A stretch of 64,000 nucleotides of DNA from Shigella phage PSD9. Position 1 is the stretch's first letter. Every line of letters starts with the position of its first letter. The position numbers and the translations under genes are program-made. Positions 12,839-63,031 of the stretch are shown piece by piece. The stretch is taken from sequence record MZ561532. One strand, given 5' to 3'. The notes beneath the pieces were generated by a model that ran no database searches, was not told the DNA's origin, and saw nothing but the letters and a program-made list of their open reading frames with translations.

Positions 12839-12878
12839 CTGATAGGGCTATACTAACATATCCTTAGGGATTGTAAAC
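12839..12878 (-). promoter_or_regulatory. Early promoter with downstream conserved box, upstream of asiA
   Basis: Minus strand GTTTAC-N17-TAGTAT-AGCCCTATCAG; about 40 nt upstream of the asiA ATG (12808). Confidence 0.5.
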
Positions 12879-13022
12879 ATGTTTTTCGTTCTTTTTAACA
12901 TATTCCTGATACATCTCTTCTATTGGTTCCTGGAACTTAAAATCAGCTCCCAGGAATTCCTCAAAGCACTCCTGCTCACGTGTACGCATGCCTGTTACGG
13001 TATTCTCTAAGTTATGACTCAT
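12864..13022 (-). CDS. Small hypothetical protein (52 aa, below the ORF-track cutoff)
   Basis: ATG at 13022 preceded by AAGGG/AAAGG; translation MSHNLENTVTGMRTREQECFEEFLGADFKFQEPIEEMYQEYVKKNEKHVYNP; ends inside the asiA promoter. Confidence 0.25.
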   Translation of the reverse strand: MSHNLENTVTGMRTREQECFEEFLGADFKFQEPIEEMYQEYVKKNEKHVYNP

Positions 13023-13111
13023 AGCCTTTACCCTTATGTTTCTGTTTACGTTTAGACTCTTTAAGGTTTTTCTTTTTGTCCTTGTGGACCGAAGCCTTAT
13101 TGAAATCGTGC

Positions 13112-13393
13112 TTAGCTACCAGATTGTTCACGTAATTTCCTTAATTGATATTCAAGAGAGCTGATAATTTCTTTATTAGTTGCAATATACATATCACGTA
13201 GGAACGGCTTCAACCCTTCCATATTACCATGGATTGTCTTAGAACTAATATTCTTTATATATTCGTGGTCTAAGGCATCCCAAGCCGGTTGGTTGACATA
13301 AGTTCCCCAGTTGTCTTCCACCATGACATTAAGACGTTTAACATGATTAATATGGGCTTCGATTGCATCAATCTGGAGTTGTTTAAGATTCAT
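13112..13393 (-). CDS. Hypothetical protein (93 aa) in the asiA-motA interval, where T4 carries arn
   Basis: Track ORF; co-oriented and tightly packed; no motif recognised. Confidence 0.45.
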   Translation of the reverse strand: MNLKQLQIDAIEAHINHVKRLNVMVEDNWGTYVNQPAWDALDHEYIKNISSKTIHGNMEGLKPFLRDMYIATNKEIISSLEYQLRKLREQSGS

Positions 13394-13881
13394 TAGTAAA
13401 GGTCCTCAGAGTAAAGTTCTTTTTCACTGCCACCACGTTCAATACGAACTTGATTAGCATAAGTCGCAATAATCATTGCTTCTTCGCGAGTCCAATAGTT
13501 TGAATATTGGTCAATAAATCCTTGGTCATCACCACAAACATGGTCTGATACAAGTTTATCACTTACCTGGTCGAGAACTTCAGCCATATCTTTAGAATAA
13601 TGACGAGCACCAGGAATAACCAGAGTCCCACCGTCTTTTAACTTAAAGCGGTTGGCAGCACACACAATCCTGCGCTGATATTTTTCATTGTTGTTCCAAT
13701 AGGCAATCTGCCAACATATTTCAGGAACCTCTTCTAAAACATCCTCTTCTGTATATTCGGTGTAATCACCATATGCCCGTAATTTAGCTGCTAGACTTTC
13801 AGGCGTCTCACGAGAAAGAGCTTTATCTAATAAAGCCATACGGTCTTTAAAGGATAATGCTTTACCTTTTAATAGATTCAT
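13393..13881 (-). CDS. Hypothetical protein (162 aa)
   Basis: Track ORF; start overlaps the upstream stop (translational coupling). Confidence 0.5.
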
Positions 13882-14225
13882 TTGAAAATCACCTTATGGC
13901 CGTTATCTTTAGCAAATTCTTGAATTTTGGTGGCAGTTTCAATTAAATCACCTTTATAATAGGATGATAATTTAATATTAACTGTTTGGCCCTCGCCATA
14001 CGAAGTTATATTTACCTTTTCAATAAAAATAATCTCAAGAAATCGTAATAACTGCATACCAAATTCAAGATAAACGTTATCAATCTGGAGATCGAGTTGG
14101 TAAATTTTCTTAATACCGCTTACCAAAGCTACACGCTCGTCCCAATCATTACGTTGTTCTTCAATCAATTTAAGGGAATGACCTTCACCGTCCCAGTTAA
14201 GTTCCATCGGAATCATTTGAACCAT
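13878..14225 (-). CDS. Hypothetical protein (115 aa)
   Basis: Track ORF; ATGA-type overlap with neighbour. Confidence 0.5.
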
Positions 14226-14542
14226 CCTTTAATACGCTGCCATAAAGATTTCTGTTGAGCTTTATTAACACCAATTGAACGGATAACCGGTTGTGATTCT
14301 TGGTATTCTTTGTAGTCCGCTTTATAGACTTCATAAGCCGCTGGGACAAAGGTGCTGATTGCCGCCATAAAGTTTTTGCGAATTCCCATAGAAGCTTCAG
14401 AACCACCACGGATGATTAAGTATTTACCTGCTTTAATCTTAACAATAGTGCCGAGATAAGCACCGTGGTACCAAATGTCCCAACCTTCTTGAGTAGGTTC
14501 TGCACAACGACGAAGTTCATTAACAATATTAAGCTTGTTCAT
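14213..14542 (-). CDS. Hypothetical protein (109 aa)
   Basis: Track ORF; tightly packed downstream of motA. Confidence 0.5.
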   Translation of the reverse strand: MNKLNIVNELRRCAEPTQEGWDIWYHGAYLGTIVKIKAGKYLIIRGGSEASMGIRKNFMAAISTFVPAAYEVYKADYKEYQESQPVIRSIGVNKAQQKSLWQRIKGWFK

Positions 14543-14560
14543 AATAATTTCCTCAGTCAG

Positions 14561-15193
14561 TTAAATTGCGTTGGTTACGGTTTTGATAACTTCAGATGAT
14601 ACGTTTTGGAAGTCGATATAAGTATTCTTACCACCAGTCTTAATCTTAACATCAAGATTCAAGGAAGTAAACACTTGTTTTTCTTTATCAGTCATATTAT
14701 AACCGAAGATGCGCATCATTCCGTCACGACGGACTTCAATTTGACGAATACCATTGGTACGTTTAGCGAATCGAACTTCAAGGTTGCTACGGTTTTCAGC
14801 AATTTCACGAATCTCGATACGGTCTTCTAATAAAGCTTTAACTTCATCAGCCAGTGTTACCATTTCAGGAGTAACACCACGTGAACTACGCGTTTTACGT
14901 TTTTCCAACATCTCTGGAGCATTTTCAGAAGCGAACAAGTCAGCAGCTTTTTGAACTAGGTCCATTGCTTCACCCGTAGCCACTAAACCATCACCGGATT
15001 TTTCGATGAATCCTTTCTTAATCAATACACCGATGTTAGAGTTAACTACCGCAGCACTAAATTGCTCACTCAGGGCTTCACGGACTTCGCCTGAAGTGAT
15101 GAAGTTATGCTTGATGATATGTACTAAGATCGAAGCAGTTTTTTCATTCAGGACGTCTTCAGAAGCTTTGATGATATAAGTAATTTTAGACAT
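14561..15193 (-). CDS. motA: Middle transcription activator MotA
   Basis: Track ORF starts at GTG 15211; ATG 15193 gives MSKITYIIKASEDVLNEKTASILVHI...NSNIGVLIKKGFIEKSGDGL, matching recalled T4 MotA. Confidence 0.85.
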   Translation of the reverse strand: MSKITYIIKASEDVLNEKTASILVHIIKHNFITSGEVREALSEQFSAAVVNSNIGVLIKKGFIEKSGDGLVATGEAMDLVQKAADLFASENAPEMLEKRKTRSSRGVTPEMVTLADEVKALLEDRIEIREIAENRSNLEVRFAKRTNGIRQIEVRRDGMMRIFGYNMTDKEKQVFTSLNLDVKIKTGGKNTYIDFQNVSSEVIKTVTNAI

Positions 15194-15220
15194 TTTGTAT
15201 CTCCATTTCACTCTGTTGTT

Positions 15221-15260
15221 TTGATAGGTCTATAGTATCATGTTTAAAGCAGATGTAAAC
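15221..15260 (-). promoter_or_regulatory. Early promoter with conserved box, upstream of motA
   Basis: Minus strand GTTTAC-N17-TACTAT-AGACCTATCAA. Confidence 0.55.
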
Positions 15261-15278
15261 TCTTTTTGCACTAAACCC

Positions 15279-15300
15279 AAAAAAGGAACCCGAAGGTTCC
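15279..15300 (-). terminator. Intrinsic terminator, GGAACC-UUCG-GGUUCC hairpin plus U6
   Basis: ggaacccgaaggttcc preceded on the plus strand by aaaaaa; on the minus transcript the hairpin follows the small ORF stop and is followed by UUUUUU. Confidence 0.6.
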
Positions 15301-15405
15301 TTACTTTTTAAAGTTGGCTGCTATTAAACCTATAGCTAAGCCTGTTGCCAGGCCTAGGATAACAGCAAAGATACAGAGTAACAAGAACTCGACTCCAAGG
15401 CTCAT
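15301..15405 (-). CDS. Small hydrophobic peptide (34 aa, single predicted TM helix)
   Basis: ATG 15405 overlaps the gp52 stop (ATGA); translation MSLGVEFLLLCIFAVILGLATGLAIGLIAANFKK; stop abuts the terminator hairpin. Confidence 0.35.
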   Translation of the reverse strand: MSLGVEFLLLCIFAVILGLATGLAIGLIAANFKK

Positions 15406-16781: not shown

Positions 16782-16785
16782 AATT

Positions 16786-17080: not shown

Positions 17081-17167
17081 ATTTTCCTCATTAGCGTCCG
17101 AAGACGCCTTTAGTTTTAAGATTGTTACTATAGAACTGCATCACATGCTCGTTATGGAAATTACTCA

Positions 17168-17617: not shown

Positions 17618-17666
17618 ATCAATTTCCTCAGTAGATTAATGTTTTGTTATCCGGTCAACGAGAACC

Positions 17667-17695
17667 ATTATAACATGATTCTCGAGGTTGTAAAC
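17667..17695 (-). promoter_or_regulatory. Early promoter (GTTTAC-N17-TATAAT) upstream of ndd
   Basis: Plus gtaaac 17690..17695 and attata 17667..17672. Confidence 0.55.
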
Positions 17696-18262: not shown

Positions 18263-18272
18263 AATATTTTCC

Positions 18273-18398: not shown

Positions 18399-18438
18399 TT
18401 GATAGGTCTATAATATCATGATTAATGGAGATGTATAC
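18399..18438 (-). promoter_or_regulatory. Early promoter with conserved box (variant -35 GTATAC)
   Basis: Minus strand GTATAC-N17-TATTAT-AGACCTATCAA. Confidence 0.45.
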
Positions 18439-18528: not shown

Positions 18529-18795
18529 TCAAAACACCACCTCTTTTATCTCAATTAATCCCCTGTGCAATGCAGTACGAAGGTCATAAAGAATATCTAT
18601 GCCGTCAACATTATCCAGTTTTCCATCAATAAGCTTTTCTAAATCTTCCTTGGATGCGATTAAGGGGCGGAGAAATTTACATTCAGAAAGAGATAACTCT
18701 GTAGTAACATCATCACCTTCACCTGATGCATCATACATAGCGGCAACAACCATACCTGTAACTTTGTGTTTAGCGTAATATAATTTGATATCCAT
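18529..18795 (-). CDS. Hypothetical protein (88 aa)
   Basis: Track ORF 18529..18855 starts at GTG inside the promoter; ATG 18795 (MDIKLYYAKHKV...) preceded by SD gaggagaacaaa. Confidence 0.5.
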   Translation of the reverse strand: MDIKLYYAKHKVTGMVVAAMYDASGEGDDVTTELSLSECKFLRPLIASKEDLEKLIDGKLDNVDGIDILYDLRTALHRGLIEIKEVVF

Positions 18796-18812
18796 TTTGT
18801 TCTCCTCATTAG

Positions 18813-18853
18813 TTGATAGGAAGATAGTAACACCATCCATGGCGTATGTAAAC
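18813..18853 (-). promoter_or_regulatory. Early promoter with conserved box
   Basis: Minus strand GTTTAC-N18-TACTAT-CTTCCTATCAA. Confidence 0.5.
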
Positions 18854-23609: not shown

Positions 23610-23660
23610 ATTCTCACCTCTAGATAATCCTATCATAACCACAGGTCTTTGTAAACCCCG

Positions 23661-23678
23661 AAAAGGGCCCGAAGGCCC
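23661..23678 (-). terminator. Intrinsic terminator GGGCC-UUCG-GGCCC plus U4
   Basis: gggcccgaaggccc preceded by aaaa on the plus strand; on the minus transcript it follows the small ORF stop. Confidence 0.55.
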
Positions 23679-23686
23679 TTATTAGT

Positions 23687-26828: not shown

Positions 26829-26847
26829 TTTATTTTCCTCTCATTTG

Positions 26848-26888
26848 TTGATAGGGTAATAGTATCACACTACTACCCTGTTGTATAC
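26848..26888 (-). promoter_or_regulatory. Early promoter with conserved box (variant -35 GTATAC)
   Basis: Minus strand GTATAC-N18-TACTAT-TACCCTATCAA. Confidence 0.45.
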
Positions 26889-28074: not shown

Positions 28075-28580
28075 AATTTTCTCATTTCAATAAAATCTAC
28101 GAGTTCGGCATAGGATTTGCGGAACATTAATTGTCGGCCACCGATGACAACCTCATCTTCTGGTATTTCGTAAACAGCAAGATAGAATCCTTTAGAAGAT
28201 AATTCTTCACGCTCTTCACGAGTGAACCAGCGCATCATATCATACTCGCTGGCAAAAGCAAAATGGTAAAGATTAACAAACCAACCTGGAATATAATCAT
28301 CACAGCCTTCATAATCAGGCTGGTCCCACTTAGTTCGAATGGTTTTATTAGAATTTTCCACCAACAACTTGTCTTGACCTGGTAGCGGAATATTTTTATT
28401 ATTGGTATGGTGGTGTCTAAAATTAGGTTTGTCGAAACCTACTTCTAATAACCAACCTTCGCTCCATTCATCAAACGAGCCTCTATACGGTGTTAATTGG
28501 CGGCACTGTTGGTGAGTGATTGCTATAACATCGCTGTTATCTAAGATACTGAACGATGACTCCACTCGATAAATTTTCAT
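28071..28580 (-). CDS. Hypothetical protein (about 169 aa)
   Basis: Track ORF 28071..28622; ATG 28580 (MKIYRVESS...) with SD gaggagaacaaa. Confidence 0.5.
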   Translation of the reverse strand: MKIYRVESSFSILDNSDVIAITHQQCRQLTPYRGSFDEWSEGWLLEVGFDKPNFRHHHTNNKNIPLPGQDKLLVENSNKTIRTKWDQPDYEGCDDYIPGWFVNLYHFAFASEYDMMRWFTREEREELSSKGFYLAVYEIPEDEVVIGGRQLMFRKSYAELVDFIEMRKL

Positions 28581-28596
28581 TTTGTTCTCCTCATGT

Positions 28597-28636
28597 TGAT
28601 AGGGTAGATAATAACATGTCATGAGGAGAAGTAAAC
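28597..28636 (-). promoter_or_regulatory. Early promoter with conserved box
   Basis: Minus strand GTTTAC-N17-TATTAT-CTACCCTATCAA. Confidence 0.5.
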
Positions 28637-31922: not shown

Positions 31923-31951
31923 GATATTTTTCTCATCTTACGGACGATTAG

Positions 31952-31991
31952 CTGATAGGTCTATAGTATCATGTTGCTCGGTAAAGTAAAC
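31952..31991 (-). promoter_or_regulatory. Early promoter with conserved box
   Basis: Minus strand GTTTAC-N17-TACTAT-AGACCTATCAG. Confidence 0.5.
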
Positions 31992-32675: not shown

Positions 32676-32689
32676 ATTATTCTCCTCAG

Positions 32690-32730
32690 TTGATAGAAAG
32701 ATAGTACCACAAGCTTCCTTGCCTGTAAAC
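32690..32730 (-). promoter_or_regulatory. Early promoter with conserved box, upstream of modB
   Basis: Minus strand GTTTAC-N18-TACTAT-CTTTCTATCAA. Confidence 0.5.
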
Positions 32731-33299: not shown

Positions 33300-33323
33300 A
33301 TGACCTCCGGTGATTTAGAGGTC

Positions 33324-33353
33324 ATTATAACATGAAGGGAGGAGGTGTAAAAC
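33324..33353 (-). promoter_or_regulatory. Early promoter (GTTTTAC / TATAAT) upstream of modA
   Basis: Plus attata 33324..33329 and gtaaaac 33347..33353. Confidence 0.45.
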
Positions 33354-34705: not shown

Positions 34706-34947
34706 AGGAAACCTCGTTTAAATTCAACTTTATCGATATCATCAGTCTCGTGACGGATTTCGGCATTAAATTCGATAGAACCGTCTTCATGCATCATAAA
34801 TGAATGGACAATAACTTCGGTATACCAAGGAGTATAAAAGTACTTTTTCAATACATGATTAGCGATAATTTCATCCAAAGTTTTATTTGGTTTAATCCAA
34901 CGATTTAACATAGTGTTCTCCTCTATAAGATAAGACCATCTTAACAC
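34702..34947 (-). CDS. Hypothetical protein (81 aa; start uncertain)
   Basis: Track ORF. Confidence 0.45.
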   Translation of the reverse strand: MLRWSYLIEENTMLNRWIKPNKTLDEIIANHVLKKYFYTPWYTEVIVHSFMMHEDGSIEFNAEIRHETDDIDKVEFKRGFL

Positions 34948-34977
34948 GGCCTTCCTAGAAAGTAAACCCTTAAAACC

Positions 34978-35867: not shown

Positions 35868-36236
35868 TTAGGAAGACCAGCCGGTAAATTTACGTTGTCC
35901 TGAATCCCAGTGAACACCTACGTCAGGAGAATACCTATAATTAAAATCACCGTAGGATTCCGAAATTTCTAAAATATATCTTACAAAATATTCACAAAGC
36001 TCATTAGACCATGAATCAGAATACACCACGAAGTGGAAAGATGATTGGTCCTCATCATCGACATCAATCCATACCCGTTTTAATTTACCTTCCGGCGAAT
36101 CATAAACACCTGAAATATATTCACCTTTAACCGAAAGGCTTCCTTCTTCAAAAGCAGTATTCAAAACAAGCCCTAATTCTCCAGGGCTAGATTCTTCTAC
36201 CCAATCATCATGGGTATTCAATAAAATCTTAATCAT
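35868..36236 (-). CDS. Hypothetical strongly acidic protein (122 aa)
   Basis: Track ORF; 23 D/E versus 9 K/R residues. Confidence 0.5.
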   Translation of the reverse strand: MIKILLNTHDDWVEESSPGELGLVLNTAFEEGSLSVKGEYISGVYDSPEGKLKRVWIDVDDEDQSSFHFVVYSDSWSNELCEYFVRYILEISESYGDFNYRYSPDVGVHWDSGQRKFTGWSS

Positions 36237-36245
36237 AATATTTCC

Positions 36246-36728
36246 TTAAAAATCAAATATGTCTAATAACGAATTAGTGGTATTAATATGAACTACTGGG
36301 GCTACATAATCATCCATCCATTCGGGATATCTGCGCCCTTCAGATCGGTCATTAGGGTCTAATGTATTTGCATATGCAAAGTTATATGAAATTATATCTC
36401 GATGTTCTTTAGTGTCACCGACAATATTTAAGATACGTTGGCATAAAAAATCATAGTTATCTTTCATATACTCAATACAATACATATCCTTTAAAGCTTG
36501 GGTTGGCGATACTCCTATTTCCAATTTCTTACGGATAACGGCTTCAACAAGATTACCATCTCCTGCTGAAGGTTCAAAGAATGTATTACCGGCCTTAAAG
36601 GATTCTTCACCACAAAGCTTTAAAAGAATTTTTGTACAGTACTCATTAGTGAATACCTCGTCAGTAGATTGTTGACGCTCACGAGATATTTCACCGTTTT
36701 TTCTTGAATTATCAATTGCTAATTTCAT
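36246..36728 (-). CDS. Hypothetical protein with SAM-binding-like motif (FFEPSAGDGNLV), about 160 aa
   Basis: Track ORF 36246..36731; ATG 36728 lies inside the 3' end of the upstream 499-aa ORF (17-nt overlap); motif resembles MTase motif I. Confidence 0.45.
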   Translation of the reverse strand: MKLAIDNSRKNGEISRERQQSTDEVFTNEYCTKILLKLCGEESFKAGNTFFEPSAGDGNLVEAVIRKKLEIGVSPTQALKDMYCIEYMKDNYDFLCQRILNIVGDTKEHRDIISYNFAYANTLDPNDRSEGRRYPEWMDDYVAPVVHINTTNSLLDIFDF

Positions 36729-38211
36729 CAAGACTTACCCCATTCACAACATTTTCTGCATACTGCCATTCTAAATCGGTAATGTTGAAGCGTTCTTGAA
36801 TCATTTCACGGGTCCACTTCTTGGTAAAATCAACTACAGGAGCGTTTTGAACCATTTTTTTACCGCCGGTACCACCGCCAAGTCCTAAAAAATATTGACA
36901 TGCTACTTTAATAGGGGCGTATGAATAAAATTCAATAGCATTTTCGGCTTCTTCAAAAGTATCAAAAGAGGCCCAAGCCTGTAAAGGTGGCTTTTCTTTT
37001 GTAATACGGGTTTTGGTGTTTGTCATAGCACTATAAAATAACTTGCCCATAATAATTTCAGAATTATCAGATGTAGTTGATGAAGGACCCAATTTCCTAA
37101 TAAAGTTCACATAGTATTCTTTTTCTACACCTTCATAATTATTAAGTTTTTCTTTAGTTCGGGTTTTATCTGCTATAGATTTTGCACTTTTATTATTCAA
37201 AATAATAGAAACAAAATCGTCATTATTATAATTATATTTAGCTTTTGTTCTTCCATTAATTAGGGTAAATCCTTGGGTTTCATTTTTAGAAAATTTTGAT
37301 ATCGCCAAAGCTGTTGTCGGTGAAGCAGAAAAGTACTTATTACCGCCATTGCAATCTATAATAGCATAATTTAGCCTTTTTTTAGCTTCAGGCCTGTGAG
37401 ATATAACTCCCATTGAATATAAAAAAGATGCTGGGGTGATAGATATTACATTATCTGCACATTCCAAGGCTTTATCTAAAAATTTCACATCACTCGTAAA
37501 TGGAGGATTCATGATAACTGTATTAAATTTCATTTTCTTAGGGGCCTTAATGAATTCAAATCCAGAGAAACATCCGAAAGTATCAAATACATATCGAGCT
37601 TTATCTGAATCAGTTGAAATGAATAAGATATCGGAAGTATCGTATCCGATAAGAGATAATAATGAAACAATTTCAAGGGATTCAATAACACAAATACGCT
37701 GAGACCAACCCATTGAATATGCAACCATTATATCACTCATTTCAATAAGCGTTTTTGCTGCTTCAAAAGTCATTACATTAGAGGTTTCCGCTGTTTGGGT
37801 GAATTTACCATCCATGGAGTGGATATAACGGTCATAATGGATTTTGGTATCAGGTTCAGATAAATCAAATTTAACAAAGCAGCGTTTTTCTTCAGAAAGA
37901 CCACGGACGCGGTTTGTTATAGAATCCCAATACTCATCAATGTAAATACCTTCAAGAGAAAAAGCTTCATGCTCATTAAGATTTGATTTAATAATTTCAA
38001 TCATGTCTGAAGGCTTAAGGCCTGATTCAAGAAGCTCTTGGATTTTAGCCAATTTTTCAGCATTACCTTGAGGGTCGGCCTTATTGAATTTTTTAGCTTC
38101 TTCAAAATGTTGCTCAGGCCGAGCACTTACACCTTTACCAAAGTAGAAAGGTTTTTTGTCTTGGTCTACTAAGCGATATACCTGATAAATTGTTTCCTGA
38201 TTGTAAGCCAT
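36712..38211 (-). CDS. GIY-YIG nuclease-like domain fused to an amino-methyltransferase-like domain (NPPF motif), 499 aa
   Basis: N-terminus IYQVYRLVDQDKKPFYFGKGVSARPEQHF resembles the GIY-YIG signature (UvrC/I-TevI type); central FNTVIMNPPF resembles MTase motif IV; occupies the 56-61 interval where T4 has dam. Confidence 0.55.
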   Translation of the reverse strand: MAYNQETIYQVYRLVDQDKKPFYFGKGVSARPEQHFEEAKKFNKADPQGNAEKLAKIQELLESGLKPSDMIEIIKSNLNEHEAFSLEGIYIDEYWDSITNRVRGLSEEKRCFVKFDLSEPDTKIHYDRYIHSMDGKFTQTAETSNVMTFEAAKTLIEMSDIMVAYSMGWSQRICVIESLEIVSLLSLIGYDTSDILFISTDSDKARYVFDTFGCFSGFEFIKAPKKMKFNTVIMNPPFTSDVKFLDKALECADNVISITPASFLYSMGVISHRPEAKKRLNYAIIDCNGGNKYFSASPTTALAISKFSKNETQGFTLINGRTKAKYNYNNDDFVSIILNNKSAKSIADKTRTKEKLNNYEGVEKEYYVNFIRKLGPSSTTSDNSEIIMGKLFYSAMTNTKTRITKEKPPLQAWASFDTFEEAENAIEFYSYAPIKVACQYFLGLGGGTGGKKMVQNAPVVDFTKKWTREMIQERFNITDLEWQYAENVVNGVSLDEISN

Positions 38212-38228
38212 TTTTGTATCTCCAGTAG

Positions 38229-38268
38229 TTGATATGTCTATAGTATCATATCTAGCAGGGATGTAAAC
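38229..38268 (-). promoter_or_regulatory. Early promoter with conserved box, upstream of the 499-aa ORF
   Basis: Minus strand GTTTAC-N17-TACTAT-AGACATATCAA. Confidence 0.5.
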
Positions 38269-40862: not shown

Positions 40863-40879
40863 AATGTTCTCCTCGGTAG

Positions 40880-40920
40880 TTGATAGGTCCATAGTATCAC
40901 TACCATAGACCGTTGTAAAC
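40880..40920 (-). promoter_or_regulatory. Early promoter with conserved box
   Basis: Minus strand GTTTAC-N18-TACTAT-GGACCTATCAA. Confidence 0.5.
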
Positions 40921-41815: not shown

Positions 41816-41828
41816 TTTGTTCTCCAAG

Positions 41829-41868
41829 TTGATAGGTCTATAGTATCACGCCTACAGGAGATGTAAAC
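41829..41868 (-). promoter_or_regulatory. Early promoter with conserved box
   Basis: Minus strand GTTTAC-N17-TACTAT-AGACCTATCAA. Confidence 0.5.
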
Positions 41869-41878
41869 CCTTAAAAAC

Positions 41879-41898
41879 AAAAAAGGAGCCGAAGCTCC
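41879..41898 (-). terminator. Intrinsic terminator GGAGC-UUCG-GCUCC plus U6, after gene 41
   Basis: ggagccgaagctcc immediately 3' of the gp41 stop on the minus strand, followed by UUUUUU. Confidence 0.6.
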
Positions 41899-43338
41899 TT
41901 AAAATTTGATAGATGCTGCTAAATCGTCCAAATCACTTCTATTAACACGCGTCTGTCGATTGACCTCGGCCTGGCGATTCATCTCACCTGTAGCCTCACG
42001 AACAGTGTTCACTGGGCCTGGGTTGGAATCATCTTCAACTTCGTACCAACGTTGATTTCCTTTCTTAACGCCAATCTTAAATTTGTTGTAGTAGCTCTTA
42101 TCGCCATAACGAGATTTAAGCTGCTTAACCATCTGCATACCCATCTGAGCGAACTCTTCTGTCTCGACCACACCCAACATGAAGTCTGCAGTATGTGCAA
42201 TACCAAAGGATTCAGCAATATCGGCCATATCGATTTCGGCTGCAACGTTCGCACCACGAGTAGTCTGGGCTGCAGTCCACAACAGTAATTTCTTCTCTAC
42301 TGCAAGTCCACGTAGTTCTTCAGCAACCATCTTAATCAATCCGTAACTGTTTTCAGAGAAAACTTTCGTACGAGACGATGCACAGATAGCCAAGTAGTCA
42401 ACGATAACGACCTGTGGGACAAAGTTTTGTTTGAGCTTGTATTCGTTTAATAATGCACGGAATGTATCGGCATTAGCACCGCCAGTAGGATACTGTTTAA
42501 TCTTTAAACGACCTAAAGTAGCAGTTGAACGCCATTTATCCATCTTAGCTTTATATTCAGGCCACGAGACGTGACCATCATCGATATCATCCAGCGACAC
42601 GTCCAGAAGGTTGGCATCGATACGCTTAGCACATACTTCCTCTGCCATCTCCATGGAGATATAAAGAACATCGTAACCAGATTGAAGGTAATCAGCAGCC
42701 AATGAACAAAGACCAAGAGACTTACCTACGTTTGTTCCTGCCAACAATACGTTTTCAGTACCAAACTCAGCACCACCCTTGGTAATCTTATTCAGAATAT
42801 TAAGACGGAATGGAACCTTACGTGCTTTATCAGAATAACTTTTGAAACGTTCTTCATAGTCATCCATCCAGTCATGACCTAATTCAGAATCGAAACAAAT
42901 CGATAATGCATCACGCATGATATCCGGAATAGCACCAATACCTGGAAGTTTTCTATTTTGTTGCTCAACCGGAAGGTCGGCATTAGTTTGGATTTCAATG
43001 ATTTTTGAAGTTGCATTATACATCGCTGCTTTCTGAACGTATTTCTCCGTCTCTTTAACCAACCATTCTTGGTCTTCAGGTCCGGCATTCAGCGAACTTA
43101 AAAGCTCTTTAGCGCCTTGGTGTTCAACTTCTGAAAGCGTACTGTTATCTAATGCAATGCTCAATGCGTTCTTAGAAGGCACTGCATTATATTCATTGAC
43201 ATGTTTTTTAATTTCTTTGAAAAGGGTCTTTGCAGGACCCTGGTCAAAATAAGAATCATTCATATAAGGCCAGACCTTAGTGAAATAATCACTATTGCCT
43301 AGCAGTTGAGCCAAAATAGTTTCTACCACTTCCACCAC
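41899..43338 (-). CDS. 41: Replicative DNA helicase gp41 (DnaB-like)
   Basis: 479-aa ORF; Walker A LLAGTNVGKS and RecA-fold motifs; N-terminus resembles recalled T4 gp41; adjacent to primase and gene 40. Confidence 0.9.
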   Translation of the reverse strand: MVEVVETILAQLLGNSDYFTKVWPYMNDSYFDQGPAKTLFKEIKKHVNEYNAVPSKNALSIALDNSTLSEVEHQGAKELLSSLNAGPEDQEWLVKETEKYVQKAAMYNATSKIIEIQTNADLPVEQQNRKLPGIGAIPDIMRDALSICFDSELGHDWMDDYEERFKSYSDKARKVPFRLNILNKITKGGAEFGTENVLLAGTNVGKSLGLCSLAADYLQSGYDVLYISMEMAEEVCAKRIDANLLDVSLDDIDDGHVSWPEYKAKMDKWRSTATLGRLKIKQYPTGGANADTFRALLNEYKLKQNFVPQVVIVDYLAICASSRTKVFSENSYGLIKMVAEELRGLAVEKKLLLWTAAQTTRGANVAAEIDMADIAESFGIAHTADFMLGVVETEEFAQMGMQMVKQLKSRYGDKSYYNKFKIGVKKGNQRWYEVEDDSNPGPVNTVREATGEMNRQAEVNRQTRVNRSDLDDLAASIKF

Positions 43339-44817: not shown

Positions 44818-44894
44818 TATATTTTTCCATAGGCATCATTATATTTTACTCACGTTTTAAGATAGGGTAATTATATCACTTCACATTTACAGCG

Positions 44895-45788: not shown

Positions 45789-46483
45789 TTCAGGAATCCT
45801 CGAACGTAGTCAAAATCACGTTCAAATACGTGTGCACTAACCATAGTATGGGAATACGTACCCAGACCAACACCACACTGTTCAGCAATAAAGGCCATCA
45901 GTTTACCCTGCAGATAGAAATCCAGCTGCATAACAATAGCACAGTTCTGTGAACGCATATGGGTATGTGCATAAAGACGTCCATCACGAATATAATATGT
46001 CACTGAATCAGTACATGGATATTCTAAGGATTCGTCAGAATCAAGGAGGGCTTGGTCTTGTTCTTGGAGAATTTGGAACACAACTCGTCTTGAGTTAGGC
46101 TTCTCTTTAAGCTCTTTAAGTAAGGCTGGGAGTTGGGCCACAATTCTAGGTCCATAGAAAGTGTTGAAGTTTGCAGGCAATACGTCACTTTTCGGCTTAT
46201 CAATGAACTTAGCAACATTAGGGTATTCCTTAAATGCTTCGGCGGCGTCAGTACCACCAGAAATCATAAACTTCCAGAAAGATTCGGCATAATCATAGCT
46301 GATACGATTAATACGAGGGTCGGTGAATTTATAGGTGCTTGCATCCAGTACTTCTACCGAAGCAGAACCAATTTCATAACAACGGCCGATACGAGAATCA
46401 ACTGCAAACTGTGGAGCTTCCAGGATTTCTTCGTTCATTTGCTTAAACGCGTTTTCAAAACTAACAGCGGTAATGTGTTTCAT
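45785..46483 (-). CDS. 42: dCMP hydroxymethylase gp42 (thymidylate-synthase fold)
   Basis: 232-aa ORF; KPNSRRVVF, CTDSVTYYIRDGRLYAHTHMRSQNCAIVM and SAHVFERDF align with recalled T4 gp42 (NPDSRRGIM, CTNTVQYLIRDKKINAVVNMRSNDVVFG, GSLHVYSRHF). Confidence 0.8.
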   Translation of the reverse strand: MKHITAVSFENAFKQMNEEILEAPQFAVDSRIGRCYEIGSASVEVLDASTYKFTDPRINRISYDYAESFWKFMISGGTDAAEAFKEYPNVAKFIDKPKSDVLPANFNTFYGPRIVAQLPALLKELKEKPNSRRVVFQILQEQDQALLDSDESLEYPCTDSVTYYIRDGRLYAHTHMRSQNCAIVMQLDFYLQGKLMAFIAEQCGVGLGTYSHTMVSAHVFERDFDYVRGFLK

Positions 46484-49984: not shown

Positions 49985-50002
49985 TGTAATTTCCTCATGT
50001 AG

Positions 50003-50044
50003 TTGATAGGAAGGATACTACCACGTTCCTTGTGGTATGTAAAC
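50003..50044 (-). promoter_or_regulatory. Early promoter with conserved box, upstream of imm
   Basis: Minus strand GTTTAC-N18-TAGTAT-CCTTCCTATCAA. Confidence 0.5.
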
Positions 50045-59350: not shown

Positions 59351-59404
59351 AATCTACCTTTATAATGTATTTCATAGATTCATTTTATCATCCAAATATA
59401 AAGC

Positions 59405-59424
59405 AAAAAAGGAGCCTAAGCTCC
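59405..59424 (-). terminator. GGAGC-UUAG-GCUCC hairpin plus U6
   Basis: ggagcctaagctcc preceded by aaaaaa on the plus strand; on the minus transcript it overlaps the stop of the small ORF. Confidence 0.5.
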
Positions 59425-59589
59425 TTTACCAACTAATACACCGTACAGAGGTTCGTGATTAGACCTGAACTTGATAGGCTTATAGGTAATAGTACCTTCA
59501 TTTTCTGCTTTAATACGAGCGGCTTCAAATTGAAGTATCATCTCATTTTTGTCAGATTTAATCTTATCAAAATCCATCGAATTCGTCAT
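59416..59589 (-). CDS. Small hypothetical protein (57 aa, below the ORF-track cutoff)
   Basis: ATG 59589 with SD AGAGG; translation MTNSMDFDKIKSDKNEMILQFEAARIKAENEGTITYKPIKFRSNHEPLYGVLVGKGA; stop codon sits inside the terminator loop. Confidence 0.35.
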   Translation of the reverse strand: MTNSMDFDKIKSDKNEMILQFEAARIKAENEGTITYKPIKFRSNHEPLYGVLVGKGA

Positions 59590-59647
59590 TCATACAACCT
59601 CTTAAACTTTTTCGTATTCGTCTTTCATTAGCCGCCTGTCCACGTTA

Positions 59648-59848: not shown

Positions 59849-60143
59849 TGACGATTTCCCAAATTTGTTTGCGGGTAGATTCCCACATCAATTGAACAAG
59901 TTCATCAGTAACAGGTTGACGGTAAATACCACGTAATTTAATTAAAGCGTACTTATATGCTTCAAAGTTGTTTTCAAGTACAGCGCCTTGGGCATGGAGA
60001 TTTAAACGACGGATTTCACGAGCATTCTTCTTAAGAATCTTAGCCGCTTGAGAATTAGCTTCTTTAATATTGTGCTCTTCTAAACGTTGCTGGGCTTCTT
60101 CAATTTGCTCATCAGTCAATTGAGAAATGTCATGGCTTTGCAT
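59832..60143 (-). CDS. Hypothetical protein (103 aa)
   Basis: Track ORF. Confidence 0.5.
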   Translation of the reverse strand: MQSHDISQLTDEQIEEAQQRLEEHNIKEANSQAAKILKKNAREIRRLNLHAQGAVLENNFEAYKYALIKLRGIYRQPVTDELVQLMWESTRKQIWEIVNGPSK

Positions 60144-60144
60144 A

Positions 60145-60336
60145 TTAATCCTTTGGAGTCAATTCAATAGTGAAGTAGAAATTAGCGTTCTCAACATGAT
60201 AACGGTAATCTACGTTATTGTCAGGAGAAGTGAATTCAATATTCCTGACGTTAAGTGGGTCAATATCAATAGGAAGGCCTTTAACATCCCGTAATATCAA
60301 TTTAATAAAATAAGGGAGTGCTTCGAAGTCTTCCAT
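60145..60336 (-). CDS. Hypothetical protein (start uncertain)
   Basis: Track ORF 60145..60411 would overlap the gene 55 3' end; an internal ATG at 60336 avoids this. Confidence 0.4.
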   Translation of the reverse strand: MEDFEALPYFIKLILRDVKGLPIDIDPLNVRNIEFTSPDNNVDYRYHVENANFYFTIELTPKD

Positions 60337-60358
60337 TCCATCTAAAAGTGGAGTGATA

Positions 60359-60916
60359 TTAATCTGATGTTCCATATAAAAAATCCAGTTCACCGACTTT
60401 AGGTTCGGCACTCTTATCAGACCCTGGTGCTTTAGTTAAAGAGGTTTCATACTGAGTCATTTTGTCGTAGATATCTTGGATAAAGGTTTCATCTGCAATA
60501 CCTACCATGTCGTCATCATTACTGTCATAGACATTATGGACGAAGTAGCTATATTTCTTTGCCATTTCTTTACGTTCTTTTTTGATACGCTGAACGAAGG
60601 CATTAAAACAAGCCATAGTGATATATGCATGTGGGTTGTCGTATTTTGTTTCGTCGAAGTTGTGAAGACCTTTAATCGAAGCTTCGATTCCATCAGCAAT
60701 CATTTCTTGCTTCCAAGATTGGGTATATCCTGAGAAGTTGAAACGTTTACTTAGTCCTTCAGCAATGAGCATAATAGCCAAGCCGATAACGTCGTTCTGG
60801 CGAACTATTTTATTAGGATCGGTATTTTCTCTGAGTTCTGTTTTCCATTGGGTGATAGCTTTCAGAAGCTCCTTATTATTTACATAGTTATTTTTAGTCA
60901 GTTTAATTTCGGTCAT
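60359..60916 (-). CDS. 55: Late-promoter sigma factor gp55
   Basis: 185-aa ORF; [19 protein letters not shown]...[58 protein letters not shown]... nearly identical to recalled T4 gp55. Confidence 0.9.
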
Positions 60917-60982
60917 TGTTACCTCAGATAACTCAAATCATAGGTCTATTATATCATAGTATTTGAAGACCCTTTTAAAGCA

Positions 60983-61246
60983 TCAACGGAGTAAGCAATA
61001 AGCCTGAAATACGGTTTCAAGGATTTGTGTGAACTCGGAATAAGAAATTGTATCAGTACATCCATGTTCAGACATATATCCACAAAATTCTTTAAAAAGA
61101 CCTGGATATTCGCGATGGTTGTATTTGGAAATATGAGACTTCCATACTAAAGAAGTCTCACCACAAACAAACTCAACATCCATACAGTTATCTATTAAGA
61201 AAAATCCGAGACCTTCGTAGGCGAGGGTGGTGGATATGGGTTTCAT
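60983..61246 (-). CDS. Hypothetical protein (87 aa)
   Basis: Track ORF. Confidence 0.5.
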   Translation of the reverse strand: MKPISTTLAYEGLGFFLIDNCMDVEFVCGETSLVWKSHISKYNHREYPGLFKEFCGYMSEHGCTDTISYSEFTQILETVFQAYCLLR

Positions 61247-61509
61247 TGTAGGAATCGAGCTCCTTCCAATGCGTCATCTAGGTTATCGAACTCGTCGACG
61301 TAATCAACACCGCCAACCTCATCTTTTGCATACAGCCAATACTGTTTAAACTCGTATTCAATAATAAAGTGGTCGCCTTCAATTTGAAGAACCCCATCAC
61401 CATTAAATTGAACTGCATAACCTGTAAAGCGGACATCATTCAAGAGTTCTTCTTTCATAGCAATCATTTCCAAGTTTTTATCGTAATTAGAGAGTTTTAT
61501 TTTAATCAT
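61243..61509 (-). CDS. Hypothetical protein (88 aa)
   Basis: Track ORF; ATGA overlaps with neighbours. Confidence 0.5.
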   Translation of the reverse strand: MIKIKLSNYDKNLEMIAMKEELLNDVRFTGYAVQFNGDGVLQIEGDHFIIEYEFKQYWLYAKDEVGGVDYVDEFDNLDDALEGARFLQ

Positions 61510-61835
61510 TTCGCTGCCTTAACAATTTTCAGGTCAACGAATTTTTTCTTACGTTGGTTTTTCATACGACGGATAGTTTTATCAGAGATTTCACCAGGGG
61601 CCCAAGCTTTAGATTCTACACCAAAGGCAGCGACATCGAATTCATCGAGGATATATTGAACCAGAATTTCACGAATACCGTTCTTACCAATTTTCTGGTC
61701 TTTAGAGTGCATGATAGGTAACAGTTCAGCAACCCATTGGTCAAGAACCTGAGGAGTTACAAAACCTGTTTTCATCAGTTCGTTTACTTTATCGAAAGCG
61801 AAAGAGTTCAGTACGTTTTTAATAGCTTGTGACAT
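61506..61835 (-). CDS. Hypothetical protein (about 109 aa)
   Basis: Track ORF 61506..61997; ATG 61835 (MSQAIKNVLN...) preceded by SD gaggaaatt. Confidence 0.45.
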   Translation of the reverse strand: MSQAIKNVLNSFAFDKVNELMKTGFVTPQVLDQWVAELLPIMHSKDQKIGKNGIREILVQYILDEFDVAAFGVESKAWAPGEISDKTIRRMKNQRKKKFVDLKIVKAAK

Positions 61836-61903
61836 AATAATTTCCTCAGTTTTAAAGTTATAATCCGTAGGACCATTATACTCTGGTCCCAAGAGTTTGT
61901 AAA

Positions 61904-62104
61904 CTATTTTTGACTCATTGCACCTTTCCAGCCTTCGTACATAGATGCAGCTGAAATTAATAAAGCGCCTGAACAACTTGAATATTTGTGGTTCCAAAAC
62001 CAGTTCAGAAAAACTTCGTCATCAATACCTTGGGCTATCATATTTTCAAAGAACTGACGACGAGCTTCAGCAATTCGCTGTGATAATTTAGATTCAGGAT
62101 TCAT
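61904..62104 (-). CDS. Hypothetical protein (66 aa)
   Basis: Track ORF. Confidence 0.45.
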   Translation of the reverse strand: MNPESKLSQRIAEARRQFFENMIAQGIDDEVFLNWFWNHKYSSCSGALLISAASMYEGWKGAMSQK

Positions 62105-62236
62105 TTAAATTTTCCAGTTTCCGTGTTTATCAATGAATTTAATCCAGTCATTTACTGACCACGTGGTTGTATCGCCCTTTGGACTAACATTTAAAGTGTA
62201 TAGTCCTTGCTTAAAAAGCATTCGTTTGATATTCAT
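62105..62236 (-). CDS. Small hypothetical protein (about 43 aa)
   Basis: Track ORF 62105..62329; ATG 62236 preceded by SD GAGGAAAAT. Confidence 0.4.
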   Translation of the reverse strand: MNIKRMLFKQGLYTLNVSPKGDTTTWSVNDWIKFIDKHGNWKI

Positions 62237-62243
62237 ATTTTCC

Positions 62244-62537
62244 TCAGCTATAACGATAACATTCGTTTGATTTACGTTTTGCAACTCGATGAGAAGTATT
62301 GTAATCAGGTTCATCGTCATTGTAAACATCTTTTTTCAGCTTTCTCACTTCTTTACGAAGCTGGCGGTTCATTTCGTTCTTAACTTCAGAATCAACACCG
62401 CGCATACGTTTCCACTTGTCGGAACGGAAGATATTTTCTTCAACCAGTTCCTGACTTACTCCGTCCGGTGCTTTACGACGTCCGGAATAATAAAAATCTT
62501 TTACAGACAATTCTTTACGACGAATAGTTTTACCCAT
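62244..62537 (-). CDS. Hypothetical basic protein (97 aa)
   Basis: Track ORF; lysine/arginine-rich. Confidence 0.5.
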   Translation of the reverse strand: MGKTIRRKELSVKDFYYSGRRKAPDGVSQELVEENIFRSDKWKRMRGVDSEVKNEMNRQLRKEVRKLKKDVYNDDEPDYNTSHRVAKRKSNECYRYS

Positions 62538-62539
62538 AG

Positions 62540-62794
62540 TTACCTCAGCAGTTTGTATCCAATAAGATTTTTAATGTATTGGACATCTTTGACATCCAAA
62601 TCTAACTTAATATCTTTCAGACGGTCGCACAGGGTCAAAAAGGTTACATGTTTCCAATTCTTCACTGGGCAACAATAAGTCTTAGGACCATTTGCAATTT
62701 CAATATTCTTATCAGTGACGGTGAGAAAAATCAGGCGCTCATCATCCAGATTAAGGGTAACGATATTTTTCATTGAATGTAATTTCAGACTCAT
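62540..62794 (-). CDS. Hypothetical protein (84 aa)
   Basis: Track ORF. Confidence 0.5.
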   Translation of the reverse strand: MSLKLHSMKNIVTLNLDDERLIFLTVTDKNIEIANGPKTYCCPVKNWKHVTFLTLCDRLKDIKLDLDVKDVQYIKNLIGYKLLR

Positions 62795-62973
62795 GATTTA
62801 ATTTCCTTAGCTACTGAACAAAATAAAGAACGGTCGCACACCATCAATGGAGCATCAGGGTGAGTCAAAGGTTGATACCATACATCGAGATTTGTTACCT
62901 TTGTTACTTGAACAGGGTAGCCATTTACTGAATAATACTGGTCGGCTTTAATTTCTTTATCTTGGATAGTCAT
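62791..62973 (-). CDS. Hypothetical protein (60 aa)
   Basis: Track ORF downstream of an early promoter. Confidence 0.5.
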   Translation of the reverse strand: MTIQDKEIKADQYYSVNGYPVQVTKVTNLDVWYQPLTHPDAPLMVCDRSLFCSVAKEIKS

Positions 62974-62990
62974 AATGTTCTCCTCATGTG

Positions 62991-63031
62991 TTGATAGGAT
63001 AGACTATAACACGTGAGGAGAGGAAGTAAAT
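62991..63031 (-). promoter_or_regulatory. Early promoter with conserved box (variant -35 ATTTAC)
   Basis: Minus strand (GT)ATTTAC-N17-TATAGT-CTATCCTATCAA. Confidence 0.45.

Follow-up and report, generated by a model that had tools for sequence, protein, structure and literature searches.

The conserved box of Shigella phage PSD9 early promoters is the predicted transcription-start segment of ordinary T4-type early promoters

The DNA analysed here (the window) is a stretch of 64,000 nucleotides of Shigella phage PSD9 (record MZ561532), and its source is a JS98-like T4-type coliphage of the genus Dhakavirus. Thirteen minus-strand intergenic sites of the window combine a GTTTAC -35 hexamer, a 17/18 bp spacer, a TAnnnT -10 hexamer and a box, (C)CTATCAAC, an arrangement far beyond chance. 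The CCTATCAAC box is real, yet its sequence and position identify it as the probable transcription-start segment of ordinary T4-type early promoters; it was judged ordinary because T4 and the T4-like phages of Serratia and Acinetobacter have the same box at the same position. The finding is thus not peculiar to PSD9. The promoters with a box are as follows.

12838..12878, minus strand: asiA promoter (gene named via the WG01 annotation), GTTTAC-N17-TAGTAT-AGC-CCTATCAGA
15220..15260, minus strand: motA promoter, GTTTAC-N17-TACTAT-AGA-CCTATCAAA
18398..18438, minus strand: promoter of an ndd.4-like small ORF, GTATAC-N17-TATTAT-AGA-CCTATCAAC, z -4.6
18812..18853, minus strand: promoter of a WG01 ORF269 homologue, GTTTAC-N18-TACTAT-CTT-CCTATCAAC
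26847..26888, minus strand: cef promoter, GTATAC-N18-TACTAT-TAC-CCTATCAAC, z -3.2
28595..28636, minus strand: motB.2 promoter, GTTTAC-N17-TATTAT-CTAC-CCTATCAAC, z -3.9
31951..31991, minus strand: srd promoter, GTTTAC-N17-TACTAT-AGA-CCTATCAGC
32689..32730, minus strand: modA promoter, GTTTAC-N18-TACTAT-CTT-TCTATCAAC
38228..38268, minus strand: promoter of a 499-aa ORF with a GIY-YIG domain, box variant CATATCAAC
40879..40920, minus strand: sp (spackle) promoter, GTTTAC-N18-TACTAT-GGA-CCTATCAAC, z -2.8
41828..41868, minus strand: promoter of a JS98 orf34 homologue (then dmd), with box, repeat family D14
50002..50044, minus strand: imm promoter, GTTTAC-N18-TAGTAT-CCTT-CCTATCAAC
62990..63031, minus strand: promoter of a 60-aa ORF, ATTTAC-N17-TATAGT-CTAT-CCTATCAAC, z -6.4

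A search of the window with CCTATCAA returned 11 matches where 2.4 were expected, every one of them on the minus strand, and no shuffle out of 100 gave as many. Nine of them lie directly 3' of a GTTTAC-N17/18-TAnnnT promoter, and the remaining two (32819 and 59471) are intragenic, a number that agrees with chance expectation. The earlier note, which had proposed the motif, spoke of twelve sites and listed thirteen; each of these has a box that differs from CCTATCAAC at no more than two positions, the probability of two mismatches or fewer in a given register being ~0.0013 per site. Variants occur at 12839 (CCTATCAGA), 15221 (CCTATCAAA), 31952 (CCTATCAGC), 32690 (TCTATCAAC) and 38229 (CATATCAAC). 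The distance of 5 nt from the -10 given in that note was wrong: the box starts 3 nt 3' of the TAnnnT hexamer in 10 promoters and 4 nt in three (63031, 50044 and 28636), and a literal search with 4-6 nt between the two elements found two sites only. The A of the box is consequently the 7th (or 8th) nucleotide past the -10, and a box starting 3 or 4 nt past the -10 spans approximately -3 to +6, at the predicted 5' end of the transcript, as had been suggested.

A GAGGAG-type Shine-Dalgarno sequence follows the box at a variable distance; in the 13 promoters the -10 to Shine-Dalgarno match interval ranges from 13 to 32 nt, whereas that from the -10 to the box is fixed, and the box position is thus tied to the -10 element and not to the ribosome-binding site. 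Pairwise identity among the 13 promoters was 0.90 for the box, 0.93 for the -35 hexamer and 0.85 for the -10 hexamer, compared with 0.31 for the 3 nt 5' of the box, 0.37 for the spacer and 0.41 for the 9 nt 3' of the box; the box is therefore as conserved as the hexamers, while its flanks are near random.

These values bear on the explanation that the box has no function of its own, and is the same everywhere through recent duplication or recombinational homogenisation of whole promoter cassettes. Cassettes of 55-61 nt are indeed the largest direct-repeat families in the window, each genome has a favourite variant (AGA-CCTATCAAC in the window, ACA-ACTATCAAC in T4), and near-identical promoters stand at non-orthologous loci (61904 and T4 7215, 41868 and T4 65413, 26888 and T4 146143). 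Homogenisation has also been proposed for the PeSL (promoter-early stem-loop) cassettes, whose mediation of shuffling was shown experimentally in RB49 and phi1 (PMC2839356). However, spacer and box flanks are near random in the very cassettes in which the box is conserved, and the core CTATCAA keeps its register in another subfamily with a different host genus, which makes homogenisation as the whole explanation improbable.

The closest class is that of the T4 early promoters (Pe; Liebig and Ruger, Wilkens and Ruger, Miller et al.), with which the window promoters share the GTTTAC -35, the 17/18 bp spacer, a TGn-type extended -10 with TAnnnT and the A/T-rich upstream region, confirming the earlier assignment to this type. 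They are codirectional and lie upstream of orthologues of the T4 early genes asiA, motA, cef, motB.2, srd, modA, sp and imm; motA, asiA, imm, motB.2, srd and sp are driven by such promoters in both phages, and some window promoters match their T4 counterparts almost base for base. The view that the T4 early consensus lacks the box did not survive this comparison: 12 T4 early promoters have CTATCAAC with at most one mismatch in the identical register, four more have it with two, and over all early promoters T4 and Acinetobacter phage 3014 have the same consensus at -2 to +8 as the window, CTATCAAc/aTA, so that the T4 start-region consensus C-T-A-T-C-A-A-C-T-A is also that of the window. In Acinetobacter phage 3014 the core CTATCAA was present with at most one mismatch in 12 of 16 clear promoters, and the box of the motA promoter has an identical register in the window, T4 (163673) and Serratia phage X20. 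When 42 nt spanning the -10, the box and the leader were used as the query, 1094 phage records matched, each Dhakavirus genome at 19-21 places. T4 early-promoter alignments in the literature are said to contain further consensus regions (PMC2988021), and C is reportedly preferred at -3 to -1 in RB69, RB49 and 44RR (PMC1524935).

The two phages differ in that the share of promoters with a box is larger in the window (13/~21) than in T4 (~12-16/38), a 17-bp spacer is common in the window and rare in T4, and the window mostly has AGA-CCTATCAAC where T4 prefers ACA-ACTATCAAC, often followed by the long leader CTACTGATACGGATTTGGAGAAT. In T4 the ACA-ACTAT segment repeats the -10 sequence TACTAT 9 nt downstream, and the box might on this basis be a second -10-like element causing sigma-dependent promoter-proximal pausing or serving as an alternative promoter. 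In the window, though, the corresponding hexamer is (A/C)CCTAT, whose second position lacks the essential A; being placed at -4 to +2, this hexamer is not within the transcribed region, and TATCAA lacks the essential final T, so that this explanation is hardly credible.

About a third to a half of the early promoters in the window and T4 have no box, and since these also work, the box is not essential. Six of those in the window, taken as comparators, are as follows.

1732..1767, minus strand: box-free early promoter on the rnh side of the tail-fibre cluster, GTTTAC-N17-TATAAT
17660..17695, minus strand: box-free early promoter of ndd, -10 in a hairpin loop
27488..27523, minus strand: box-free early promoter of motB, -10 in a hairpin loop, z -5.1
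33317..33352, minus strand: box-free early promoter of modB, TTTTAC-N17-TATAAT
34931..34967, minus strand: box-free early promoter, TAAGAT, then GGTCTTATCTTAT
61868..61904, minus strand: box-free early promoter, GTTTAC-N18-TATAAT-GGTCC, z -3.3

Box-free promoters with TATAAT had been noted before at rnh, ndd, 27495 and modA; the first three were recovered (1767, 17695 and, at motB, 27523), as were those at 33352, 34967 and 61904, but the modA promoter (32730) has the box, and the box-free one at 33352 belongs to modB. The promoter at 61904 equals the T4 motB promoter (GTTTAC…TATAAT-GGTCC) up to the fifth base past the -10, which lies in the loop of a GGGACC/GGTCC inverted repeat.

Inverted repeats that covary enclose many early promoters of the window; in some of these repeats the spacer pairs with the Shine-Dalgarno further downstream. 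At 18438 the spacer ATCTCCATTA is complementary to the leader TAATGGAGAT; at 28636 the leader CATGAGGAGAA matches the reverse complement of the spacer TTCTCCTCATG exactly; at 63031 the spacer pairs with the Shine-Dalgarno leader; and at 38268 the variant CATATC has its complement, GATATG, in the spacer. The -10 of the cef promoter (26888) lies between the arms GGGTA and TACCC, its spacer being almost the same as in T4 promoter 146143, and the promoter at 41868, near-identical to that upstream of T4 denV (65413), is preceded by an intrinsic-terminator-like hairpin (41874-41900). The PeSL cassettes of RB49 and phi1 (Arbiol et al. 2010, PMC2839356) are a related system: they too are repeated intergenic cassettes of ~60-100 nt with an A/T-rich tract, early promoter, stem-loop, Shine-Dalgarno and ATG, the stem-loop may overlap the -10, and sites upstream of small or novel ORFs are preferred. 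Similar sequences were noted in JS98, and T-even analogues are built on T4-type promoters (PMC2839356). PeSLs differ in their sigma-70-like TTGACA -35 and their G/C-rich stems working as terminators, whereas the window stems are weaker, have no U-run and in several cases pair spacer and Shine-Dalgarno. A second related system is that of the hairpins of T4 e, soc, 49 and I-TevI, which sequester the ribosome-binding site and contain an internal promoter (PMC3014915). As there, the 5' arm precedes the start site at 63031, 28636 and 18438, and likewise in T4 early promoters 65413, 62797, 166807, 53943, 136336 and 123093; the Shine-Dalgarno would therefore be hidden in read-through transcripts only. 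The internal promoter is late in the T4 genes and early in the window, where the putative anti-Shine-Dalgarno arm is the -35/-10 spacer itself.

The box was absent from 30 T4 middle promoters with mapped starts, which indicates that it is specific to the early class, although middle promoters often lie inside coding sequence, which alone might erase such a consensus. Early specificity and overlap with +1, a typical repressor position, would suit an operator, made up of the box alone or of the box plus a spacer segment complementary to it, to which a factor of the phage or the host binds, for example the one behind early-promoter shut-off 2-3 min after infection, a mechanism described as not understood (PMC2988021; PMC3014915). 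Against this, many early promoters without the box are shut off too, the flanking inverted repeats covary between promoters (GATATG/CATATC, GATAGAACC/GGTTCTATC), which argues for base pairing rather than a fixed protein site, and no candidate protein was identified. A regulator binding site, one of three functions put forward earlier, thus found no support and is very unlikely. By inspection, an IHF site (WATCAA-N4-TTR) was rejected, since its TTR part fails in every copy of the box.

The best fit among those three functions was the initially transcribed element. The T4 names Pe133295 and Pe57954 refer to the 7th nucleotide past the -10, the position of the box A, and the preferred start is A>=G at 7>8>9 nt past the -10 (PMC2613000); from T4 nomenclature and these general rules we infer +1 at the box A. 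The box contains no G and no TG. T7 A1 (AUCGAG...) and lambda PL (AUCAGC...), strong phage promoters read by E. coli RNA polymerase, similarly have an A-U-C start after a pyrimidine at -1, but they are single promoters and not a repeated family-wide box. Initial transcribed sequences strongly affect escape, and slow-escaping ones are T- and T-G-rich around +3 to +7, although T at +2, as in the box, was unfavourable for escape in the lacUV5 context (PMC5961368). Most likely, then, judging from studies on unrelated promoters, the box serves start-site selection and provides a G-free initial transcribed sequence for escape from very strong promoters.

Most of the box (+1 to +6) would be transcribed. 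The leaders, of just 18-35 nt, are predicted to lack structure and to leave their first 6 nt largely unpaired. Selection might therefore act on the RNA, on a conserved early-mRNA 5' end pppAUCAAC(UA) that would offer the ribosome or protein S1 an unstructured, C/A-rich place of entry, or would control 5'-end-dependent decay or stabilisation of the message. Related G-free starts such as CTTACACAAAC and CTCATACCAAAC in T4-like relatives from IMG/VR are consistent with this, as is the lack of the box at middle promoters for a feature of early mRNA. Nevertheless, -3 to -1 (C, C, T) are conserved like the transcribed part while lying outside the RNA, the spacing is fixed to the -10 and not to Shine-Dalgarno or AUG, and AUCAAC has no known recognising factor. 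RegB/S1 requires GGAGRAYARAA and nothing specific 5' of GGAG (PMC1702504), which also disfavours the processing signal suggested before. Selection at the RNA level is accordingly unlikely, if less so than the other alternatives.

Taken as a whole, a start segment at about -3 to +6 with a role in start selection and escape, together with cassette spread, is probably the best explanation. Promoters of the T4 early type are read by unmodified host sigma-70 RNA polymerase right after infection. Under this start-segment reading, the T(-1)A(+1) pair, 7 nt past the -10, would fix initiation at the box A. The initial transcript AUCAAC, G-free and T-poor, would avoid Y-G initiation pauses and so may allow fast polymerase clearance of promoters bound very tightly through UP, -35, TGn and -10. 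As a by-product, early mRNAs would share a common, unstructured, short leader of 18-35 nt, which would run into a GGAG(A/G)A-type Shine-Dalgarno doubling as a RegB site; that AGA-CCTATCAAC is nearly invariant in the window may also reflect spread or homogenisation of whole ~55-60 nt promoter cassettes. The box is a family-wide component of the early promoter class, common to T4, Mosigvirus, Winklervirus and Acinetobacter T4-like phages.

All 13 minus-strand intergenic sites at which the earlier note had placed promoters carrying the box, a conserved start-region motif after the -10, were confirmed, allowing one or two mismatches. The -35 element was an exact GTTTAC in 10 of them and had a single mismatch in three (GTATAC in two, ATTTAC in one), not TTGACA, and the spacer was 17 bp in eight promoters and 18 bp in five. 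G at -14, as in a TGn-type extended -10, was present in 90% of the 21 window promoters; T-12, A-11 and T-7 of the TAnnnT hexamer were invariant, and the 15 nt upstream of the -35 formed a UP-like region (A+T of 0.67-0.93), with A-runs such as AAAAAAGT and TAAAAGT directly ahead of GTTTAC. The 13 promoters are intergenic and codirectional, and lie upstream of orthologues of the T4 early genes asiA, motA, cef, motB.2, srd, modA, sp and imm, as well as of small ORFs. The -35, the spacer, the TGn/TAnnnT element, the A/T-rich upstream region, the early-gene location and a start consensus shared with T4 bore out the early-promoter reading, and the 13 sites are predicted to be T4-type early promoters, presumably active immediately on infection with unmodified host sigma-70 RNA polymerase. 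An identity as MotA/AsiA-dependent middle promoters, in which a MotA box (a/t)(a/t)TGCTT(t/c)A centred at -30 replaces the -35 element, was rejected: all 13 sites have the GTTTAC element at -35 and none has TGCTT at -30. A separate site upstream of uvsX possibly corresponds to the middle promoter of T4 uvsX:

44837-44879, minus strand: extended -10 and box-like start, GTGATATAAT-TAC-CCTATCTTAA, with no GTTTAC -35

An 8-kb piece of the window matched JS98-like T4-type coliphages of the genus Dhakavirus (LHE83, 95.8%; JS98, ~90%), with a gene order that includes rIIA, 39, cef, motB, dexA, dda, srd, modA and modB; the segment upstream of rIIB, containing asiA, motA, gene 52, ndd and denB, matched WG01 and Bp7. 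Three ORFs (122, 161 and 499 aa) were observed at 35868-38268, between gene 56 and gene 61, where JS98 does not have them. A GIY-YIG nuclease domain (PF22945, E = 3.8e-9) lies at the N terminus of the 499-aa protein, whose gene has a box promoter of its own, with the variant CATATCAAC.

Eleven copies of CCTATCAA were found in the window, all on the minus strand, against 2.4 expected, and none of 100 shuffles reached this number. Nine of them directly follow GTTTAC-N17/18-TAnnnT; the other two (32819 and 59471) are intragenic and correspond to the chance level, so that the box as an independent element away from promoters was rejected. The box had been described as lying 5 nt after the -10, but the real gap is 3 nt in 10 cases and 4 nt in three, and a literal search with the former spacing (N4-6) returned only two matches. 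Hence the box covers positions -3 to +6, approximately, with its A at the 7th (or 8th) nucleotide downstream of the -10. A set of box-free TATAAT promoters does exist, as proposed (1767, 17695, 27523, 33352, 34967 and 61904), although modA had been assigned to it in error: the box is present at the modA promoter (32730) and missing at that of modB (33352).

Pairwise identity among the 13 box promoters, by segment
Box: 0.90
-35 hexamer: 0.93
-10 hexamer: 0.85
3 nt preceding the box: 0.31
Spacer: 0.37
9 nt past the box: 0.41
Upstream region: 0.39

The box is fixed in its distance to the -10, whereas the gap between the -10 and the Shine-Dalgarno match varies from 13 to 32 nt; the box is a discrete element under constraint. 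Among the direct repeats of the window, the largest families are promoter cassettes of 55-61 nt. A longer repeat does therefore include the box, but it consists of the promoter with its leader and ribosome-binding site, and is not one unrelated to promoters.

The T4 genome was scanned with the same rule as the window, in three stretches that between them contain its early regions (~127 of 169 kb). In the same register, CTATCAAC was matched with no more than one mismatch by 12 T4 early promoters and with two mismatches by four others. The favoured variant is AGA-CCTATCAAC in the window and ACA-ACTATCAAC in T4, where the long leader CTACTGATACGGATTTGGAGAAT is often added.

T4 promoters by sequence form (T4 positions)
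TGGTACTAT-ACA-ACTATCAAC: 27080, 53943, 55384, 70696, 163673 (motA), 167086
TGATACTAT-TAC-CCTATCAAC: 73572, 146143, 166807
TACTAT-AGA-CCTATCAAC: 65413

A -2 to +8 consensus of C-T-A-T-C-A-A-C/A-T-A, computed over all early promoters, both box-bearing and box-free, was common to the window (21 promoters), T4 (38) and Acinetobacter phage vB_AbaM_3014 (16). The latter is a Lazarusvirus of a different subfamily (Twarogvirinae), and 12 of its 16 clear promoters had CTATCAA with at most one mismatch. A 42-nt query comprising the -10, box and leader matched 1094 phage records, from phages of Escherichia, Klebsiella, Shigella, Acinetobacter, Enterobacter, Salmonella, Yersinia, Serratia and Erwinia, at 19-21 places per Dhakavirus genome and ~10 per Mosigvirus genome. 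The motA early promoter has the box in T4, the window and Serratia phage X20. An IMG/VR scan anchored on GTTTAC-N15-TGnTACTAT yielded chiefly unrelated chance matches, and its T4-like subset had the box or related G-free variants. Conservation was assessed by comparison across genera, diverged Dhakavirus orthologues being few.

The premise that the box falls outside the T4 early consensus is refuted by T4's own sequence, since T4 early promoters hold the box in the same register. Consensus sequences from Liebig and Ruger (1989) and Wilkens and Ruger (1994) reportedly run beyond +1. The early-promoter logos of Nolan et al. (2006) reach through the start site, with C at -3 to -1 in RB69, RB49 and 44RR (PMC1524935), and reviews mention 'additional regions of consensus' in T4 early promoters (PMC2988021). 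To judge from these sequence comparisons, the consensus of T4-type early promoters has the box as its start region, and the suggestion that it is novel is not supported. The T4 GenBank records contained no annotated promoter features, but did include a note naming Pe133295. A full-text literature search for CTATCAAC returned one incidental occurrence only, in the IME08 termini paper. IME08 position 46215, among the 20 most frequent read starts, lies inside an IME08 box promoter (gatggatggaG/TATAATCTTTCTATCAACTTGAGGAG); such read starts have been taken as terminase cuts at TTGGA/G (PMC3105952), and the overlap is probably coincidental.

The T4 promoter names Pe133295 and Pe57954 (PMC6024815) agree with the 7th nucleotide past the -10 in the promoters found at 133331 and 57990, and this is where the A of the box falls. 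As a general rule, transcription starts 7>8>9 nt after the -10, with A>=G preferred (PMC2613000). In 30 mapped T4 middle promoters, the start is likewise 7 nt after the -10 and T(-1)A(+1) is preferred. CTATCAAC was absent from all 30, and the box is accordingly class-specific to early promoters, with the caveat that many middle promoters lie inside genes, where coding constraints might remove a consensus of this kind. The literature search found no genome-wide T4 start-site data set.

Several other identities were considered for the box. A processing signal was an option raised in the earlier note; one for RegB/S1 was rejected: the target is a single-stranded GGAG with an A-rich 3' side (GGAGRAYARAA) and nothing specific is needed 5' of GGAG (PMC1702504), so the box, which has no GGA, is not such a signal, and the Shine-Dalgarno regions that do fit are a separate element. 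An IHF site (WATCAA-N4-TTR) would share TATCAA with the box, but TTR is missing in all 13 copies (e.g., CTAA-TGA and CTAC-CGA). A second -10 or sigma-dependent pause element lacks its key bases and would be wrongly positioned.

The primary role of the box is most likely in initiation, because its position is tied to the -10 and because three of the conserved positions, -3 to -1, lie outside the transcript. T(-1)A(+1) at the optimal distance would set the start site, and the initial transcript, AUCAAC, would be free of G and of T-G steps; the latter were a mark of slow-escaping initial transcribed sequences in a large screen (PMC5961368). T4 early promoters hold the polymerase jointly through UP, -35, TGn and -10 contacts (PMC2988021), and escape could therefore plausibly be limiting and under selection. 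A limit at escape would also account for middle promoters, without the -35 contact, having T(-1)A(+1) but no CTATCAAC. We infer from these considerations a role of the box in start selection and escape. The literature yielded no mutational data on the box, and no experiment that accounts for its absence from middle promoters or for a start region conserved, across host genera, as strictly as the -35 and -10 hexamers.

The transcript leaders would be 18-35 nt long, are predicted to be unstructured, and would continue into Shine-Dalgarno sequences of the GGAGAACAAAA type that fit the RegB/S1 target GGAGRAYARAA. Regions with GGAGAACAAAA or GGAGAACATTA matching this target were observed, for example, at 18790-18812, 28573-28595 and 62966-62990, and early mRNAs that carry them are probably RegB substrates.

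Across 56 early promoters from the window and T4, the spacer paired much better with its own -6 to +8 region than with those of other promoters (mean -6.1 vs -3.3 kcal/mol, p = 1e-4). The inverted repeats flank the -10, with a loop of ~12-16 nt, at six window promoters:

61868-61904, box-free; -10 in the hairpin loop
27488-27523, box-free; -10 in the hairpin loop
17660-17695, box-free; -10 in the hairpin loop
34931-34967, box-free
26847-26888, minus strand, box promoter of cef
38228-38268, minus strand, box promoter

They were also found at 9733, 14965, 16157 and 30175 in the Acinetobacter phage, where the box itself forms the 3' arm (GATAGG...CCTATC; GATAGAACC...GGTTCTATC). The two arms covary: at 38268 the box variant CATATC stands opposite GATATG, as GATAGAACC stands opposite GGTTCTATC in the Acinetobacter phage, and the motB.2 promoter of the window differs from its T4 orthologue in both arms, with pairing possible in each.

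Pairing between the spacer and its own Shine-Dalgarno leader characterises a second group (own-versus-other control, p = 0.045; 10 of 56 ranked first or second):

28595-28636, minus strand: spacer TTCTCCTCATG opposite leader CATGAGGAGAA
18398-18438, minus strand: spacer ATCTCCATTA opposite leader TAATGGAGAT
62990-63031, minus strand: spacer-Shine-Dalgarno pairing, z = -6.4
40879-40920 and 41828-41868, minus strand: further window cases
T4 65413, 62797 (regB), 166807, 53943, 136336 and 123093: T4 cases

Read-through transcripts could hide the ribosome-binding site and proximal ones cannot, because the 5' arm is present only in read-through RNA. The arrangement is similar to the sequestration of ribosome-binding sites known for T4 e, soc, 49 and I-TevI (PMC3014915), except that an early promoter is inside the hairpin.

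[quoted passage not shown] The window promoters may form comparable units: spacer pairing exceeded the cross-promoter control over the window and T4, though a clearly significant hairpin was found in only ~5 of the 13 box promoters. PeSL have a sigma-70-like TTGACA at -35 and a G/C-rich (GGGG...CCCC) terminator stem, whereas the window promoters have GTTTAC, and their stems are A/T-rich or Shine-Dalgarno-based with no U-run. Three minus-strand G/C-rich hairpins resembling intrinsic terminators, with a T-run (AAGGAGCTTCGGCTCCTTTTTT), were also observed:

41874-41900, minus strand: adjoins the promoter-like -35 at 41868
59400-59426, minus strand: no neighbouring promoter
23654-23680, minus strand: G/C-rich stem only, no clear T-run; adjoins the promoter-like -35 at 23656

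By sequence these look like intrinsic terminators, and the terminator-then-promoter layout, where a promoter follows, resembles PeSL cassettes.

Near-identical promoters, spacers included, front different genes in T4 and the window. The window promoter at 61904 (61868-61904) equals the T4 motB promoter (7215) from the -35 through the first five bases past the -10; that at 41868 (41828-41868) resembles the T4 promoter upstream of denV (65413), and that of cef at 26888 (26847-26888) resembles T4 146143. This points to promoter cassettes that may have spread or been homogenised, exchanged between loci, on top of selection on the box. Cassette spread has likewise been proposed for PeSL, which are associated with recombination, ORF shuffling and mini-circle formation (PMC2839356); in the window, the likeness would lie in the near-identical promoters at loci non-orthologous to those of T4.

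The box is class-specific to early promoters yet kept from coliphages to Acinetobacter phages, and on these grounds it could conceivably be a cis-element read by something beyond plain RNA polymerase, either a mechanism of early shut-off 2-3 min post infection or a factor marking early mRNA 5' ends; we consider this very improbable. The abrupt shut-off of T4 early promoters is described in reviews as not understood (PMC2988021, PMC3014915). If such a cis-element were real, it would, together with the covarying inverted repeats, make the expression of each early gene dependent on initiation at its own promoter. Taken instead as a standard part of T4-type early promoters, the box has little weight as a discovery; in this JS98-like phage it flags 13 early transcription units, and for annotation it offers predicted +1 positions, short leaders and RegB-type Shine-Dalgarno sequences.
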